From positions 1-34,045 of the forward strand of contig SLQM01000188.1 of NCBI GenBank assembly GCA_007131435.1: a stretch of 34,045 bases of DNA, in the 5' to 3' direction. The notes under the pieces were generated by a model. That model was not told where the DNA came from. It made no database searches and saw only the letters and a program-made list of their open reading frames with translations. Position numbers and translations under genes: made by a program. This stretch comes from Syntrophomonadaceae bacterium. Its GTDB lineage: Bacteria > Bacillota > Dethiobacteria > DTU022. Position 1 is the first letter of the stretch; every line of letters starts with the position of its first letter. Shown here in pieces: positions 1 to 6,116 of the stretch.

Positions 1-281
1 ATCTCACCGCCAAAAAGCTGTAAGCTCTGCTGGCAGGCTATAATTTCAATGCCCTGCTCTGCAGTCTGCTTCAATACTTCAAAAAGCGTTGGGAATTCGC
101 CAATTTTTACTTTTTCCGCTTCACCTTTGACCAGGTTTTTTAAACCCAGCCCCAGGAAATATACTGTGGCATCCTGTCCCATTGCCTTTGCTGTCTGGGC
201 CAAAATCAATGGTGAATAAAGCCTTTCAGGGGTATCTGTCCCACTTGTCTGCACGTAAAGGATCTTATTTGCTTCTGCCAT
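1..281 (-). CDS. DsrE/DsrF-like family protein (3' end runs off the window)
   Basis: Own translation from ATG at 281 (GGAGG upstream, inside the end of tusA): MAEANKILYVQTSGTDTPERLYSPLILAQTAKAMGQDATVYFLGLG...IEIIACQQSLQLFGGE. Shows the DsrE pattern with the conserved Cys in IACQQS. Not in the ORF track because it is truncated. Confidence 0.8.
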   Translation of the reverse strand, partial: MAEANKILYVQTSGTDTPERLYSPLILAQTAKAMGQDATVYFLGLGLKNLVKGEAEKVKIGEFPTLFEVLKQTAEQGIEIIACQQSLQLFGGE

Positions 282-282
282 C

Positions 283-639
283 TCAAGAATCCTCCTTTCC
301 ACCTTTTTGAACCAGGAAGTGATACTCGTCTCCATCCTGTCTCATGGTAACCAGCTGATGCCCTGCCCTTTTAGCCCAGCGCGGTATGTCTTCTGCTGAA
401 GCCGGATCATCGGCAACCAGTTCCATCAGGTTGCCTTCTTCCAGGGTATCTATTTCTTCCTTGGCCCGCATGACAGGCACCGGGCAATAAAGACCGACAC
501 AATCAACCAGGTGTATTTTCAACTTGTCATCACTTGTGCACCTGTATCTTCCATCTTCAGGATCGGGACAAATAGGTTTGTCACAAAAAGGGCAGCTGCA
601 ACCTTTTGCCTTATCCTGTTCTTGTTTATTCATGTTCAT
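283..639 (-). CDS. tusA: Sulfurtransferase TusA family protein with a Cys-rich N-terminal extension
   Basis: DCVGLYCPVP (CPxP persulfide motif) and ADDPASAEDIPRWAKRAGH; GGGAGG RBS before the ATG. Confidence 0.88.
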   Translation of the reverse strand: MNMNKQEQDKAKGCSCPFCDKPICPDPEDGRYRCTSDDKLKIHLVDCVGLYCPVPVMRAKEEIDTLEEGNLMELVADDPASAEDIPRWAKRAGHQLVTMRQDGDEYHFLVQKGGKEDS

Positions 640-684
640 TAAAATGACCTCCCATAATAGCTTTTTAAAACCACCTAAACCTGC

Positions 685-1068
685 TTAGTTTTCTGCTTTC
701 ACCTTTGCCCTGTAATCTTCAATTGCTTTATGCAGGGCATCGGCACCCAGGTTAGAGCAGTGCATTTTATTCCCGGGAAGCCCTTCCAGCTCTTCAGCAA
801 CCTGTTTATTGGTAATTTTCATTGCTTCATCAAGGGTTTTACCCTTGGCCATTTCAGATACCATACTTGAAACGGCTATTGCTGCACCACATCCAAAGGT
901 TAAATACTTAATATCTTCAATCCGGTCATCTTTAACTTTAATTGTGAACTTCATCATATCGCCACAAACGGGGTTTCCTACTTCTCCCGTACCATCGGGG
1001 TTATCGAGCTCTCCAATATTGCGCGGCTTGGTGAAATGCTCCATTACTTTATCGCTATACTCAGGCAT
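685..1068 (-). CDS. iscU: Fe-S cluster scaffold IscU/NifU N-terminal type
   Basis: YSDKVMEHF..PRN, GNPVCGD, FGCGAAIA and KMHCSNL; all three Cys plus the Asp and His are present. Start overlaps the iscS stop. Confidence 0.95.
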   Translation of the reverse strand: MPEYSDKVMEHFTKPRNIGELDNPDGTGEVGNPVCGDMMKFTIKVKDDRIEDIKYLTFGCGAAIAVSSMVSEMAKGKTLDEAMKITNKQVAEELEGLPGNKMHCSNLGADALHKAIEDYRAKVKAEN

Positions 1069-2248
1069 TCTGTTTAGCCTCCTTCATAAACTGGTGGTAA
1101 AGCGGAGACATGCTCCGCAAAATATTGGTAACTTCAGCCAGCTGTTCGGTAATGTATGGAATATCTTCTACGCTGCTTCCCGGCCCCGCGGTAAGCTGCA
1201 GGGAGCCCTGGGCCAGCTCGGGAGGAACACCGATCGCTGATAAAACATGAGATGATTTTAAGGCCTGCGAAGTACAGGATGAGCCGCTTGAAACGCTGAT
1301 GCCGGCCATGTCTAAACGCATCAGCAGGGCTTCTCCTTCAACAAAGCTAACTGATATGTTAAGGTTTCGCGGCACCCTCTTCTCCGGGTGGCCGTTTAAA
1401 TGTAAATATGGTATGGCGCTAAAAAGACTCTCTTTTAGCTTATCCCTGAAAAAAGCAGCTTCTTTTGCACGTTCTTCAAGCTGAACGGCTGCAATGCGCG
1501 CCGCTTCGCCAAGGCCGGCAATGAGGGCAACATTTTCTGTTCCGGCCCGCAGCCCTTTTTCCTGGGTCCCCCCTTCAACCAGGGGTGTTAACCTTACTCC
1601 ACGCTTGACAAATAGCGCCCCTGTACCTTTGGGCCCGTAAAACTGGTCTCCCGCCAGTGAAAGCATATCTATACCGAGCTTTTGAACATCAACAGGAATC
1701 CATCCTACTGCTGCTGCTGCATCGGTGTGAAAAACAACATTACTTTCTTTTGCTACAGCTACCAGTTCTGCGAGGGGTTGTATGGTCCCTATTTCCTGGT
1801 TAGCGGCCTGGATAGTGACCAAAATAGTCTCGCCTGTAATCGCGTCGGCCAGGTCCCGGGGGTGAACCAGCCCGTATTCATCTACCGGAAGCTCTGTTAT
1901 AGAAAACCCTTCCTTTTTCAAGGTTTTAAGCTGGTTAAGAATAGAAAAATGCTCAACCGGAGAAGTGATAATGTGCTTCCCCTTCTTCATATTGGCTTTT
2001 GCAAAACCTTTAACTGCCAGGTTGTTTGCTTCCGAAGCAGATGCAGTAAAAATAATATTTCCTGCATCTGCACCTATTAGCCGTCCTACATTTTCCCGGG
2101 CCTCCTGCAGGGCTTTACGGGGCATTTCCCCTAAACTATGACCACTTGAAGGGTTACCATAATGCTCGGTTAAAAGTGGAAGCATCTTCTCTATAATTGC
2201 TTTTTCAACAGGGGCTGCTGCTGTATAATCAAGGTTTATTTTTTTCAT
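1061..2248 (-). CDS. iscS: Cysteine desulfurase (IscS/NifS) family protein with a degenerate PLP site
   Basis: YGNPSS, EH, YGPKG, RAGTEN, SGSSCTS and LRSMSPLY motifs, but SxHK is replaced by AGDQ. Start placed at ATG 2248 (MKKINLDY) after GAGGG; the ORF track extends to 2266. Confidence 0.9.
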   Translation of the reverse strand: MKKINLDYTAAAPVEKAIIEKMLPLLTEHYGNPSSGHSLGEMPRKALQEARENVGRLIGADAGNIIFTASASEANNLAVKGFAKANMKKGKHIITSPVEHFSILNQLKTLKKEGFSITELPVDEYGLVHPRDLADAITGETILVTIQAANQEIGTIQPLAELVAVAKESNVVFHTDAAAAVGWIPVDVQKLGIDMLSLAGDQFYGPKGTGALFVKRGVRLTPLVEGGTQEKGLRAGTENVALIAGLGEAARIAAVQLEERAKEAAFFRDKLKESLFSAIPYLHLNGHPEKRVPRNLNISVSFVEGEALLMRLDMAGISVSSGSSCTSQALKSSHVLSAIGVPPELAQGSLQLTAGPGSSVEDIPYITEQLAEVTNILRSMSPLYHQFMKEAKQNA

Positions 2249-2306
2249 TTTAAACATCCCTCTCAAAGCTTTCAGCTGAGTCTTGACTAATTCATCAAAT
2301 AATTAT

Positions 2307-2333
2307 ATAATTCCTATAAGAATTATAGGTTAT
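2307..2333. promoter_or_regulatory. Rrf2-family (CymR/IscR-like) operator
   Basis: Perfect inverted repeat CCTATAA-gaa-TTATAGG (2313-2329) overlapping the -10 box; contains ATAATTCCTAT (2307-2317), which resembles the Bacillus CymR motif AT(A/T)ATTCCTAT as I recall it. Confidence 0.65.
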
Positions 2334-2350
2334 TTATAGCGGCGTGTCAA
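2322..2350 (-). promoter_or_regulatory. SigA promoter of the iscS operon
   Basis: Perfect TTGACA (2350-2345), 17-nt spacer, TATAAT (2327-2322) on the minus strand. Confidence 0.85.
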
Positions 2351-2516
2351 GGGCATCAAGGGTTAAAATAATATTGCAGTAGGAATATTTAAAAAACCTT
2401 GGCTGCTAGGATATAATAAATTTTAAAGGGCTTTCCCTTTAAGCTGATCAACCTGGTTGCACTTAGAAGGTAACAATCAGGCCCAGCAAATAAAACTAAA
2501 AGGAGCGAATTAAAGA

Positions 2517-3014
2517 ATGAAAACAAAGGAAAATCTGATGGCAGCTTTTGCCGGGGAATCACAGGCTAACAGGAAATACCTGGCCTTTTCCAAAAAGGCA
2601 GAAAAAGACGGTTTCAAGAATGTTGCCCGTATTTTTAAGGCTATTGCCGAAGCTGAAACTATTCATGCTTTAAAACACTTTGAAATTGCCGGTAAAGTAA
2701 ATGACACCCTTGAAAACCTGAAAGCTGCAGCTGAAGGTGAACACTATGAATTCTCGGAAATGTATCCTGAATTTATTGAAACAGCCAAACAGGAAGGAGA
2801 TAATAAGGCACTTCAGAGTTTTGAGTACGCCAATGCAGCAGAAAAAGTGCACGGCGGAATATTCAATGATCTAAAAGAAGCGGTTGCCAAAGGTTCTGAC
2901 TCAGAAGACAAAAATGTTTACCTCTGTCCCGTATGCGGGTGGGTAGGCTTTGATCCCGTTCCCGATAAATGCCCGATCTGTAATACGGCAAAAAAAGCTT
3001 TCCAGCAGTTTTAA
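2517..3014 (+). CDS. rbr: Rubrerythrin
   Basis: NLMAAFAGESQA, EAETIH, EGEHYE and EKVH di-iron ligands; C-terminal CPVCG...CPIC rubredoxin-like domain; AAGGAG RBS. Confidence 0.95.
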   Translation: MKTKENLMAAFAGESQANRKYLAFSKKAEKDGFKNVARIFKAIAEAETIHALKHFEIAGKVNDTLENLKAAAEGEHYEFSEMYPEFIETAKQEGDNKALQSFEYANAAEKVHGGIFNDLKEAVAKGSDSEDKNVYLCPVCGWVGFDPVPDKCPICNTAKKAFQQF

Positions 3015-3032
3015 ACAACTTGCTAAATCTTA

Positions 3033-3059
3033 AAGGGGCACTTTTTATAAGTGCCCCTT
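3033..3059. terminator. Bidirectional intrinsic terminator
   Basis: AAGGGGCACTT-tttat-AAGTGCCCCTT, 11-bp stem between the convergent rbr and cotH-like genes. Confidence 0.75.
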
Positions 3060-3074
3060 CTTAATTATCCTCAC

Positions 3075-6000
3075 CTAATTCCATTCATCAAAGATAAACA
3101 TTTCCTCTTCACTTAGGTTAAAGTAACTTTTTAAGTGGTTTAGAACATGCTCCTGGCGAAGTTCGGCAAAATTGCGCAGAACTTCCACCTGCCTGTGCCA
3201 GCGGTCCATTGACCCTCCCCACCTGTCCAGGTGCCTTGGCATTTCCGGCTCGATATTGGATGCCAGTTCATCAATCTTTTCTATAACCCTTTCTGTCTTG
3301 AAGGTATTATTGAGATGGAAGGCTGAGCGCTCGATAAACCTTTCCCTGAAATCGGAGTTGCGAAGTAACCCGTTAATCAGGTCGGTATTCAGGTTGCGCC
3401 ACGGCCCGGTCCCCCCCGGCAGGGTTGCATAAGCCAGGGTGTTGTTTGCATGATTGCCCTCCCAAAAGCCCCAGTCAAGGTCGAAAGTAATCCAGCGCCA
3501 TTTGCCATCTTCGTTCTGTTCACGCCAGAAACGGATATTAGCCAGGTCGGTCTGGGCAAAGTAGATTTGTGCTATCCAGTAATCTATATAGTTATCAATA
3601 TCCATCATGGCCGCCACGTGATTATAGCTATCCGGGTTTGAAAGGTCATTGCTGCGCACAAAATCAAGCATATCCCTGTAATGATCGTTGGAGCCAGTCC
3701 GTACCCAACCGTTACCCTGCAGCAGGTCTACCCGGTCAGGATCAACCCCATGATTGTAATGAAGATAATGATTGTTTATCCTTTCCCGCAAGTTATAAAT
3801 ACCCCAGTACTGCCCATTGATATAAAGAACTGTCTGACGGTAAGCCTGGTAATCATAATGCTCCAGGTCCAACAGGCTTGTCATAAAAATATCCCTGATC
3901 TTGGAAAACTGCCAGTCCTGGCCAGAAGTGCGCAGGGTTAGGCCTTTATTTGAAAGCGGCTTTTCGGGATAGAAGTCGGGGAAAAAGGGATAGGTAAATT
4001 CGTTATACCCGTAAATGTTGCGGGCAAAAAGGTTAAAAGATTTCTGCGGCTCTGCCCGGCTATACTGGCCGGCAATTCTTAAACCAAGGTCAAAACTGAA
4101 TCCTGCCTCGCCACCCGGTTCAAAAAACTCCATGTGGACGGGAATTTCTATATTTTGCCAAAAATTTGCACCCCGGTAGGGGAAATATGATGCGCCCCCC
4201 CGCCCTTTCATGTAGATGCCCCGAACAGGATCAAAAAAATCATCCGGGTCACCCATAATTGATATAACTGGCAGGTGGTGATCATCGCCGATGAAAAATG
4301 TACGGTTTACCGTCGGACCGGGCAGTTTTCCTTCTTCAAAAACCCTGGCCCTCAAAACAGTGGTCTCTGTTATTTCGATAGGCCCGCTGTAAAGTTTGCC
4401 TTCTTCATAAGAGGGGGTTTGAAGCCTGGTGTCTTCAGTAATAAATATCTGTCCATTATAGCGGGATAAATGAGCAGCTGGCTCCCTACCGTTTAAAGTG
4501 TAACGAATTTCTGCATCCGGTGAATCGGTAAAAAGCTCCACCGTTACTGGGTTGTCAAAAAAACCGCCCTGGGAAGATACCCGGGTAATGGCACCAAAAC
4601 CGCTGAAGACTTCCCCCTCATTCGGTGCGCCCGGAGAAGCTTTCTTAAAGAAAGTGCGGTTCCCACTCCCGCCCGGGCAGTGGCCTACAGATAAATCAGG
4701 CAGCAGTTTGCCGGAATGCAGGCTGTCTAACACCAGGCCGGTTGGATGGGTCAGGGATATGGTTTCACCTGTCGCCTGGATCTGGTAATTAGTGTGCAGG
4801 TAGTCATTTTCAGGATCCCTGCGATCTTTACGGGAAGCAAATACAAGCAGGTAATCACCTGGATTAATTTCGACAGAGGGCAGTACCCAGCGGAACAGAT
4901 CATCCTCATCATCTGAGAGGCCGAAACCTTCAAGATTTACCGGCTCAGTGCCCTGGTTGTGCAGCTCAATCCAATCCGGGTAGTCTCCATCTTCATCGGC
5001 GATTGTGGTCAGGTTCTCAGCCATAACTTCACTAATTATCAGGGTTCCCTCTTCTACTGCAGGATAAGCAGCCAACTCTTCATAGCCCATTGTTTTATTA
5101 ACTTCGCCGGGTGTGGGACGGGGAAAGAACAGCCAGGAATCTGGATCACCGGGATCGCGGCCGTATGAAATATCATCATGCTGAGCTCGTATGGGGATCA
5201 AATCAATAGTTTTTCCATCTGGTGTTTTAAATACCAGTTCATCATCTCGATCATTTAAACCAAAGTTAACATGCAAAAAGGGGTTGTCAGGATCATCAAT
5301 GTTCTTACCCGAGGCAAAAATAATTAGGTATTCCCCGGGCCCGATTGTAACACCGGGAAACCTCCACTTGAAAGGGTTACTTTCTTTATCTGAGAGCCAG
5401 TATCCTTCGAGATTAATATTTGCATCTCCGGAATTATAAAGTTCAATCCACTCATGCAGTTCGCTGTCTTCATCCATTATGGAAGTATAATTGCGTACTA
5501 AAAATTCATTAATATAAACGGGGTGGTCTTGGGCTCCAGGCAGATTAAAAACATCTTCATAAGGCTCTTTTTCGTTCGGTTCTCCCGGAGTGGCATCCAG
5601 GAAATAAGCCCATTCATCACCATAAGGCTGAGGGCGACCGAATGAAATATTTGATGGAATTTTTTCTTCGAAAACGATCTCATCCAGTATACGGCCGTCA
5701 ATATGACCAAACACCACGGCATCACCGCTGCGGTTGATTCTAAAATCGGTATGCAGGTTTTCACGATCAGGGCTTGACCGATTTTTACCGGATGCAAAAA
5801 CAACCAGGTGTTCACCGGGTTCTATGACAATACCTGGGAACATCCACTGCATGGGTTCATCAGGATCATTGGATAGCCAGTAGCCCTCAAGATTGATGGC
5901 CCTGCTCTTCGGGTTATGTATCTCGATCCAATCCGGGTAATCTCCATCTTCGTCCTGCAGCACAACCCTATTGCTGGCCATTATTTCGGTTATCATTAAA

Positions 6001-6116
6001 TCCTTACCGTCTACACTTAAAGCAACCAGCAGTAAGATAAGCACAATAAAAAAAACCAGAAGCCCAAATGTCATCCAACCTCTTTCAGTTTTACGGGGCT
6101 TATTTCTATAATACAT
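3075..6116 (-). CDS. CotH kinase family protein with three lamin-tail domains and an FN3-associated/chitobiase-like domain
   Basis: N-terminal TM segment; three repeats of I(T/N/S)E..D.D....WIE..N......NLEG..LS; IRYTLNGREP; C-terminal CotH motifs (GLRIAGQYSR, NGQYWGIYNLRERIN, WRWITFDLDWG). Confidence 0.85.
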   Translation of the reverse strand: MYYRNKPRKTERGWMTFGLLVFFIVLILLLVALSVDGKDLMITEIMASNRVVLQDEDGDYPDWIEIHNPKSRAINLEGYWLSNDPDEPMQWMFPGIVIEPGEHLVVFASGKNRSSPDRENLHTDFRINRSGDAVVFGHIDGRILDEIVFEEKIPSNISFGRPQPYGDEWAYFLDATPGEPNEKEPYEDVFNLPGAQDHPVYINEFLVRNYTSIMDEDSELHEWIELYNSGDANINLEGYWLSDKESNPFKWRFPGVTIGPGEYLIIFASGKNIDDPDNPFLHVNFGLNDRDDELVFKTPDGKTIDLIPIRAQHDDISYGRDPGDPDSWLFFPRPTPGEVNKTMGYEELAAYPAVEEGTLIISEVMAENLTTIADEDGDYPDWIELHNQGTEPVNLEGFGLSDDEDDLFRWVLPSVEINPGDYLLVFASRKDRRDPENDYLHTNYQIQATGETISLTHPTGLVLDSLHSGKLLPDLSVGHCPGGSGNRTFFKKASPGAPNEGEVFSGFGAITRVSSQGGFFDNPVTVELFTDSPDAEIRYTLNGREPAAHLSRYNGQIFITEDTRLQTPSYEEGKLYSGPIEITETTVLRARVFEEGKLPGPTVNRTFFIGDDHHLPVISIMGDPDDFFDPVRGIYMKGRGGASYFPYRGANFWQNIEIPVHMEFFEPGGEAGFSFDLGLRIAGQYSRAEPQKSFNLFARNIYGYNEFTYPFFPDFYPEKPLSNKGLTLRTSGQDWQFSKIRDIFMTSLLDLEHYDYQAYRQTVLYINGQYWGIYNLRERINNHYLHYNHGVDPDRVDLLQGNGWVRTGSNDHYRDMLDFVRSNDLSNPDSYNHVAAMMDIDNYIDYWIAQIYFAQTDLANIRFWREQNEDGKWRWITFDLDWGFWEGNHANNTLAYATLPGGTGPWRNLNTDLINGLLRNSDFRERFIERSAFHLNNTFKTERVIEKIDELASNIEPEMPRHLDRWGGSMDRWHRQVEVLRNFAELRQEHVLNHLKSYFNLSEEEMFIFDEWN

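Follow-up and report, generated by a model that had tools for sequence, protein, structure and literature searches.

A lysine-less IscS-like protein encoded with IscU, TusA and DsrE in a Syntrophomonadaceae bacterium, a candidate iron-sulfur assembly module fed by a persulfide relay

The 34,045-nucleotide contig SLQM01000188.1 (assembly GCA_007131435.1) of a Syntrophomonadaceae bacterium, referred to here as the window, carries within positions 1-2350 four tightly packed minus-strand genes for an IscS/NifS-like protein, an IscU/NifU-type scaffold, a TusA-family sulfur carrier and a DsrE3-like sulfur carrier. The IscS-like protein, named IscS* in the following, lacks the lysine that holds pyridoxal 5'-phosphate (PLP) in cysteine desulfurases and retains the loop cysteine. 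We give about an even chance to the reading that this operon encodes an accessory iron-sulfur (Fe-S) assembly module, regulated by sulfur status, in which a persulfide relay from DsrE to TusA takes the place of PLP chemistry as the sulfur supply. The question bears on how Fe-S clusters are supplied with sulfur in anaerobes without cysteine desulfurases, and on the purpose of PLP-free IscS proteins in general.

The first-pass annotation had described four tightly linked genes under one consensus promoter, and this description holds. The genes for IscS* (1061-2248, or 1061-2266 as listed; Aminotran_5), IscU (685-1068, 127 aa; NifU_N, TIGR03419), TusA (283-639, 118 aa; PF01206) and DsrE (1-281, the first 93 codons, frame 3-281; PF02635) are co-directional and reach Pfam scores of 234, 169, 85.5 and 45.4 bits, respectively. 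The ATG of iscU overlaps the stop codon of the IscS* gene by 8 nt, iscU and tusA are 45 nt apart, and the dsrE ATG at position 281 lies 1 nt past the tusA stop, its frame leaving the contig at base 1. Ahead of the genes, also on the minus strand, lie a promoter (2322-2350) whose TTGACA and TATAAT boxes match the sigma-70 consensus at 12 of 12 positions with a 17-nt spacer, and a conserved operator over the -10 box (2304-2332), recognized from the upstream regions of relatives and a weight matrix. IscS* would comprise 395 aa from the ATG at 2248 and 401 aa from a TTG at 2266; since all relatives begin MK.INLD, the ATG is the likely true start, while residue numbers given here follow the 401-aa version. 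The window is an entire contig of an 83%-complete genome in 261 contigs, and the truncated dsrE is completed on another of these, C246, whose first 121 nt overlap exactly with window positions 1-121 read in reverse complement. The two contigs are therefore adjacent in the genome. C246 supplies the last 31 dsrE codons and the stop, and three TRAP-transporter-like genes follow about 170 nt beyond dsrE.

In an alignment to solved desulfurases, the His-Lys pair of the S-x-H-K motif falls on D207-Q208 of IscS* (codons 1646-1648 and 1643-1645). The loss of the PLP site noted in the first-pass annotation extends beyond the lysine. In the H-x-D-A-x-Q motif, Ala185 takes the place of the PLP-contacting Gln; in the NNE motif, Gln replaces the Asn, at a position where 12 of 13 relatives have Pro and none has Gln. 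Retained are the loop cysteine Cys331 (in SSGSSCTS) and two further PLP contacts, His106 and Asp182. The protein belongs to the class-V aminotransferase fold (PF00266, 234 bits, E 3.4e-69) and aligns over its full length with solved desulfurases, and it stays under the NCBIfam equivalog cut-offs both for NifS (TIGR03402, 458.2 versus 530.75) and for IscS (TIGR02006, 376.2 versus 643.2). From these substitutions we infer that IscS* can no longer bind PLP, and it would therefore not desulfurate cysteine itself. The closest solved relatives (E ~1e-122) are the PDB entries 9wep, 9wer, 9wew, 9wf8, 9wfb, 9wfe and 9wfy, a set of point variants derived from a single cysteine desulfurase of 406 aa. It retains the His-Lys pair and has in common with IscS* an ALK.SHVL stretch after the loop cysteine; no paper describing this series was found.

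To place the substitutions, 40 related genomes were compared, 24 of the same family and 16 of the same order. Orthologues of IscS* at 61-85% identity occur in 13 of them (11 of 24 in the family, 2 of 16 in the order), plus a fragment in one more (G032), and the next-best matches, at 49% identity or less, are ordinary NifS. All 14 copies, the window included, have D-Q or N-Q at the His-Lys site, versus H-K in 16 of 16 canonical NifS paralogues of the related genomes. Likewise, the Gln of HxDAxQ is Ala and the loop cysteine is kept in all 14. The replacement residues are themselves invariant across genera.

The gene neighborhood is as constant as the protein. A Lys-less iscS beside iscU, tusA and dsrE, sought in other genomes as the first-pass annotation had suggested, is found with the order IscU-TusA-DsrE kept at all 11 related loci whose flanks are long enough; two more loci end too early. 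At canonical NifS loci of the same relatives IscU follows in 15 of 16 cases, and neither TusA nor DsrE occurs within 1.5-kb flanks in any of the 16. Among 31 loci from named metagenome-assembled genomes (MAGs) at 60-84% identity, IscU is next in 28 of 29 by the rule of the script, the sole miss (L067) visibly having IscU, and TusA plus DsrE follow in 25 of 25 loci with room. When 400 other genomes were sampled evenly across the phylum, just three reached E 1e-130. G029 and G189 combine D-Q with the complete cluster; G137, the third, has H-K and lacks the carriers. Within the phylum the cluster is thus scarce and scattered, with most of its carriers in a single family. In public databases, more than 120 clusters formed at 90% identity are 61-100% identical to IscS*, and all named ones are entered as 'cysteine desulfurase' or 'cysteine desulfurase family protein'; if our reading is true, many such entries in this clade are misnamed.

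These counts also bear on the simplest alternative, a decaying duplicate of nifS-nifU, for which the lost catalytic lysine and the scores under the curated NifS and IscS cut-offs would be natural. A relic is contradicted by the conservation: the frames are open, the replacement residues are invariant across genera, the promoter and operator are conserved, and related sequences fill the database clusters just mentioned and at least 596 stretches across phyla (see below). We regard decay as barely credible. With the substitutions fixed across orthologues and hence no sign of decay, the pattern points to a conserved module under purifying selection.

The partner proteins are equipped for sulfur handling. 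As the first-pass annotation had it, IscU is intact and both carriers keep their cysteines. IscU has the complete ligand set of Cys35, Asp37, Cys60, His103 and Cys104 and scores above the TIGR03419 (NifU_clost) cut-off (197.9 versus 187.9). TusA carries Cys52 in a CPVP motif and exceeds the PF01206 cut-off clearly (85.5 versus 28.6). It is preceded by a Cys-rich extension of 40 residues, absent from the 82-position E. coli TusA equivalog model NF001423, with Cys14, Cys16, Cys19, Cys24 and Cys34 as well as His43. The five extension cysteines, His43 and the CPVP cysteine are invariant in 22 of 22 TusA sequences of 56-91% identity. The protein stays below the cut-off of NF001423 (64.4 versus 78 bits) and of the YedF models NF008242 (50.2 versus 79) and TIGR03527 (38.6 versus 110). 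A fold predicted with 22 close relatives has a mean predicted local distance difference test score of 55.6, falling below 50 in the extension, and a search of the ESM Atlas with TusA returned TusA-domain clusters only and gave no lead on the extension. A co-fold of IscS* with TusA, run without controls, reached a best score of 0.21 versus a mark of 0.32 and counts neither for nor against binding.

DsrE has its cysteine, Cys83, in IIACQQS; full-length orthologues are 124 aa long and score 58-66 bits with PF02635. Among solved structures, 3mc3 matches best (E 3e-18), and the active-site cysteines of the two align. This entry is SSO1125 of S. solfataricus, a DsrE3A protein (PMC4175335). The Cys-X7-Cys motif of the subgroup DsrE3A (PMC4175335) is incomplete in the window protein, where a profile alignment places Gly at the second cysteine. 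DsrE3-type proteins are described as trimers that donate sulfur to TusA (10.1101/2023.12.18.572138; donation also in PMC4175335).

In the mechanism that we favor, IscS* without PLP would pair with the intact IscU scaffold. Cys83 of the DsrE3-like protein would take up sulfane sulfur and pass it to Cys52 of TusA, which would hand it to Cys331 in the IscS* loop or straight to IscU, where the cluster would be built. The ultimate sulfur would be polysulfide, thiosulfate or persulfides, plentiful in soda-lake sediment. A repressor bound to the operator over the -10 box would keep the operon off, and cysK, preceded by the same operator, would be subject to the same control. We infer the protein contacts, the direction and source of the sulfur and the identity of the repressor. 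TusA is most simply the donor, because it is fixed beside a protein that appears unable to make a persulfide, and the DsrE3-like type of the second carrier fits a DsrE-to-TusA direction.

Two known relays use the same families. In the E. coli IscS-TusA-TusBCD relay, an IscS-like protein, TusA and the DsrE-family protein TusD pass persulfide from cysteine to cysteine. There an active PLP enzyme starts the transfer, which runs from IscS over TusA and TusD to tRNA, and the genes do not form a single operon with iscU; in the window the IscS-like member has no lysine and the direction is likely the opposite. The DsrE3-TusA relays (DsrE3A-TusA in Metallosphaera cuprina, DsrE3B/C-TusA in Hyphomicrobium and Thioalkalivibrio) resemble the window in that dsrE adjoins tusA and that the nearest solved DsrE is the DsrE3A protein SSO1125, and the preferred transfer in these sulfur oxidizers goes from DsrE3 to TusA. 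Unlike the operon described here, they feed sHdr or Dsr sulfur oxidation and involve no Fe-S scaffold, and the window protein lacks the second DsrE3A cysteine.

To see how far the lysine-to-glutamine exchange reaches, a species-genome collection was searched with two peptide patterns, both derived from the aligned orthologues: Q-F-Y-G-P-K-G, which has two more variable positions, and S-x-[IV]-E-H-F-S-[VI]-L-N. At least 600 stretches match the two patterns and at least 596 of these are confirmed relatives, spread across phyla. We kept 80 loci, 31 close ones (60-84% identity) and 49 outside the window lineage, the latter mostly from Nitrospirota, Chloroflexota and Scalindua, and neighboring genes were called by a hidden Markov model scan. 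Gln occupies the lysine site in 80 of 80, which is largely expected because the patterns were built so. The PLP-contacting Gln is lost as well in all 80 (Ala in 79, Ser in 1), and the loop cysteine is kept in 79 of 79 loci covering the region. In the outside loci with room, IscU is next in 39 of 48, TusA is present in 34 of 41 and DsrE in 4 of 41, the gene orders being IscU-TusA (28), IscU-DsrE-TusA (4), TusA alone (2), IscU alone (1) and none of these (6), Scalindua and Planctomycete loci being among the last group. All 37 TusA proteins of outside loci have the CPxP cysteine (34 found by regular expression, 3 by eye), and every one of the 70 IscU proteins detected in the set of 80 loci has its ligands complete. 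TusA bears the Cys-rich extension at 21 of 28 close loci and at none of 37 others. This distribution argues that the core triad of IscS*, IscU and TusA is older than the window lineage. Seven Scalindua or Planctomycete loci (L088, L091, L099, L109, L112, L113 and L115) have N-Q or S-Q, GPPG in place of GPKG and no IscU or TusA alongside, and one Scalindua genome (G044) carries a second Lys-less paralogue with S-Q-P (L140).

Among the 150 nearest clusters at the 50%-identity level, 20 lack the lysine, with ten different replacements, and the loop cysteine is present in all 150. A FastTree phylogeny of 158 sequences, in effect unrooted and with modest deep supports, groups the window protein with those of Nitrospirota, Chloroflexota and Scalindua in a clade (A) in which 26 of 27 tips are Lys-less (support 0.42); the parent node has a support of 0.85, and its three extra tips are also Lys-less. 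A separate Lys-less clade (B) of five tips has N-D at the site (support 0.78), and for one of its members (P0162) the nearest solved structure is Archaeoglobus fulgidus IscS2 (4eb5), whose motifs read SSNDIYGPKG and HIDATAS.

The first-pass annotation had likened IscS* to this A. fulgidus protein, and the likeness survives in part. A. fulgidus IscS2-IscU (4eb5, 4eb7, 4hvk and 4r5f) also has the group-I fold without the Schiff-base lysine, keeps the loop cysteine, has lost the HxDAxQ Gln and is encoded with IscU. It differs in having N-D at the His-Lys site, versus D-Q in the window. As the tree puts the two types in different Lys-less clades, the window protein is akin to the A. fulgidus one in kind but probably not in descent. 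IscS1 of Methanosarcina acetivorans, which we compare by description only, is reportedly without the catalytic lysine as well and has been proposed to play an A. fulgidus-like role (PMC7585200); it is archaeal and uncharacterized. For neither of these two proteins do the passages cited here mention carrier genes.

The A. fulgidus case suggests an alternative in which IscS* works as a scaffold partner on free environmental sulfide, stabilizing IscU and lending Cys331 as a ligand, with TusA and DsrE serving to buffer or detoxify sulfane sulfur or to thiolate tRNA or the molybdenum cofactor. This is the role published for the PLP-free A. fulgidus IscS (PMC7585200, PMC13066941), 4eb5 is in the second-best group of solved IscS* relatives (E 3e-113), sulfide is abundant in the habitat given for related records and runs, and most loci of other phyla do without DsrE (it is present in 4 of 41). 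The likely placement of IscS* in a different Lys-less clade speaks against it, and it leaves the linkage of TusA unexplained, which stands downstream of IscU in 25 of 25 and 34 of 41 loci versus 0 of 16 beside canonical NifS-NifU. On balance we judge this alternative unlikely, while granting it a real share of the probability. The conserved linkage needs explaining even if the relay works in another way.

The control region ties the operon to sulfur metabolism. TTGACA and TATAAT are kept at equal spacing upstream of the orthologues compared. The operator consists of a core, CCTATAA-N3-TTATAGG, followed by AATTATAT, contains the -10 box, and is found in the window and in 14 of 16 upstream regions of relatives, whose flanks diverge. 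Extraction by regular expression gave 30 sites with 24 different sequences. When a weight matrix is trained on 22 such sequences from relatives, the window being left out, it scores the window operator at 41.2 bits. A second site in the genome reaches 30.4 bits, and all others, apart from the other strand of the window site, stay at 17 bits or less; shuffled genome sequence, scanned over 1 Mb, gave 9.9 bits at most. The second site (C257:6659-6687) lies 40 nt upstream of cysK (C257:5689-6621), encoding cysteine synthase A (TIGR01139, 472 bits). Searching 41 genomes for a 24-nt operator pattern with up to 2 mismatches matched every operon copy in the family, and the same pattern stands beside cysK in four relatives (G009, G018, G020 and G013). 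In G013 the site (L171) is upstream of an Rrf2 gene with three cysteines, which is followed by cysK. The operator common to the operon and cysK ties the operon to cysteine or sulfur status, and the repressor is probably an Rrf2 protein. No Rfam match was found in window positions 1-3200 at E up to 1, and the conserved 5' leader is therefore no known riboswitch. Most leaders of relatives contain a GTCAA word at a distance of 20-40 nt downstream from the operator (about 2270-2300 in the window), in surroundings that differ.

The first-pass annotation had framed the operon as cysteine-independent and raised the question of a canonical desulfurase elsewhere in the genome. One is present: an Rrf2-NifS-NifU locus on contig C198 encodes a NifS with SAHK and SSGSAC motifs, and three further class-V enzymes retain the lysine, namely an IscS-like protein (C172, SAHK), an EF2568-type protein (C215, GHK) and a partial one (C119). 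The Lys-less protein was also compared with its genome in five other cases, a Dehalococcoidia, an Anaerolineales, a Nitrospirota and a Scalindua genome and a Syntrophomonadaceae MAG, and 5 of 5 encode a group-I enzyme in which both H-K and the PLP Gln are present. The four-gene module is therefore an addition and no sole route to Fe-S clusters. Two further loci are plausible feeders for the proposed relay. C8:1540-4023 encodes an 827-aa protein in which CoA-disulfide reductase, rhodanese, TusA and a DsrE-family domain are fused, a candidate reductase of persulfide or polysulfide that has carriers of its own, and C211 encodes YeeE/YedE-like transporter halves with TusA.

The coexistence of His-Lys desulfurases with the Lys-less protein, here and in the five other genomes, is what a cysteine-dependent relay would predict, in which NifS on C198 or another canonical enzyme loads TusA, which then feeds the second IscU through IscS* as a Lys-less adaptor. 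The IscS-to-TusA step is established in E. coli (PMC11302665). NifS, for its part, has its own NifU adjoining, and a DsrE3-type donor within the operon points to sulfane sulfur from sources other than cysteine. Co-regulation with cysK suggests a response to cysteine or sulfur status, and a route that spends cysteine would be odd while cysteine synthesis is induced. We hold this relay to be improbable, slightly more so than the free-sulfide scaffold.

Selenium handling had been raised as an alternative by the first-pass annotation, and its premise is borne out: selD (C127:27310-28239) has one in-frame TGA, so the organism reads selenocysteine. In this scenario the carriers and the loop cysteine would handle selenium for selenophosphate synthesis, or sulfur for thio-cofactors, and IscU would be a bystander; the sub-threshold hits of the window TusA to YedF models are in keeping with it. 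For the same TusA, the TusA model gives a higher score (64.4 bits) than the YedF models do, and the fully liganded IscU is the most constant neighbor of IscS*. Selenium handling is better assigned to a separate cluster on C215 (27-3005), where YedE (TIGR04112, 495 bits, cut-off 200), a YedF-like TusA of 70 aa, a Se/S-carrier-like protein of 90 aa (PF11823) and a Lys-bearing class-V enzyme are encoded together, likely for this purpose. We consider a selenium or thio-cofactor role for the window operon very improbable.

Several points weigh against the proposed relay itself. We know of no demonstrated transfer from TusA to an IscS-type cysteine. The retained His106 and Asp182 may leave room for weak non-covalent binding of PLP by IscS*. 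DsrE is missing from most loci outside the window lineage, and Scalindua-type copies stand without IscU or TusA. On the regulatory side, a control with the reversed pattern gave 15 hits against 23 real ones at 2 mismatches, so that the weaker operator sites are partly noise; the link to cysK stands because of two sites with 0 mismatches and their recurrence. Among the five Rrf2 genes of the 83%-complete genome no clear orthologue of the G013 protein was found, the best reaching 39% identity. Cysteine could be the ultimate source by way of NifS and TusA, since a canonical His-Lys desulfurase is kept here and in the five other genomes. The established E. coli direction is from IscS to TusA (PMC11302665), and the PLP-free A. 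fulgidus IscS is described as a cluster ligand that uses free sulfide, with no carrier needed (PMC7585200, PMC13066941).

A wider version of the DsrE-to-TusA reading is more tentative, and we place it well below an even chance: a large, old Lys-to-Gln clade, with members in Bacillota, Nitrospirota, Chloroflexota and other phyla, would represent a widespread bacterial Fe-S route that takes sulfane sulfur from TusA, loaded by a DsrE3-like protein in some lineages, and gives it to IscU, drawing on polysulfide, thiosulfate or persulfide of the environment, sparing cysteine and being switched on together with cysteine synthase when cysteine is short. If the relay is true, TusA would not be an acceptor alone but would also donate sulfur to Fe-S assembly, and cells in sulfidic alkaline sediments would depend less on cysteine for their Fe-S clusters. 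The operon is a testable candidate: its four proteins are small and soluble, each has one cysteine where transfer is predicted, and relatives occur in many phyla.

Parts of this picture are already known, namely PLP-free IscS with IscU (A. fulgidus, noted also in M. acetivorans) and the IscS-TusA-TusD and DsrE3-TusA relays. The use of sulfide has been shown for the SUF and SMS systems of methanogens, the carriers of which are not known (PMC7585200, PMC12192291). The MIS system of anaerobes (MisS-MisU) likewise has a two-gene core of an IscS-like and an IscU-like protein without chaperones or carriers (PMC13066941, PMC12192291); it is described there with an active cysteine desulfurase, whereas the window has lost the lysine and added two sulfur carriers. 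The first-pass annotation knew of no description of the four-gene combination, and none turned up in the literature searched, which left out supplements and the primary MIS/SMS phylogenomic paper. The same search found no description of a large bacterial Lys-to-Gln clade, of its fixed linkage to TusA (joined in this lineage by a DsrE3-like gene) or of an operator shared with cysK.

Sequencing runs containing the stretch are labeled as salt-lake or soda-lake metagenomes, with at least half of the sampled words present in 4 of 20 rows. A run from an RNA library yielded three short contigs, one of which (195 nt, 3 differences) spans positions 180-374 and thus the tusA-dsrE junction; DNA carry-over is possible.

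On the other side of the promoter, a 165-aa open reading frame (2517-3014, plus strand) diverges from the operon and is followed by a terminator-like hairpin (3033-3059). Judged by its sequence, it looks like a rubrerythrin. A counterpart with 88% identity over the first 60 residues is likewise divergent upstream of the cluster at locus L048, and a shorter frame is present at L047. Adjoining the operon region, a 1013-aa open reading frame with internally repeated segments occupies positions 3075-6116 on the minus strand.

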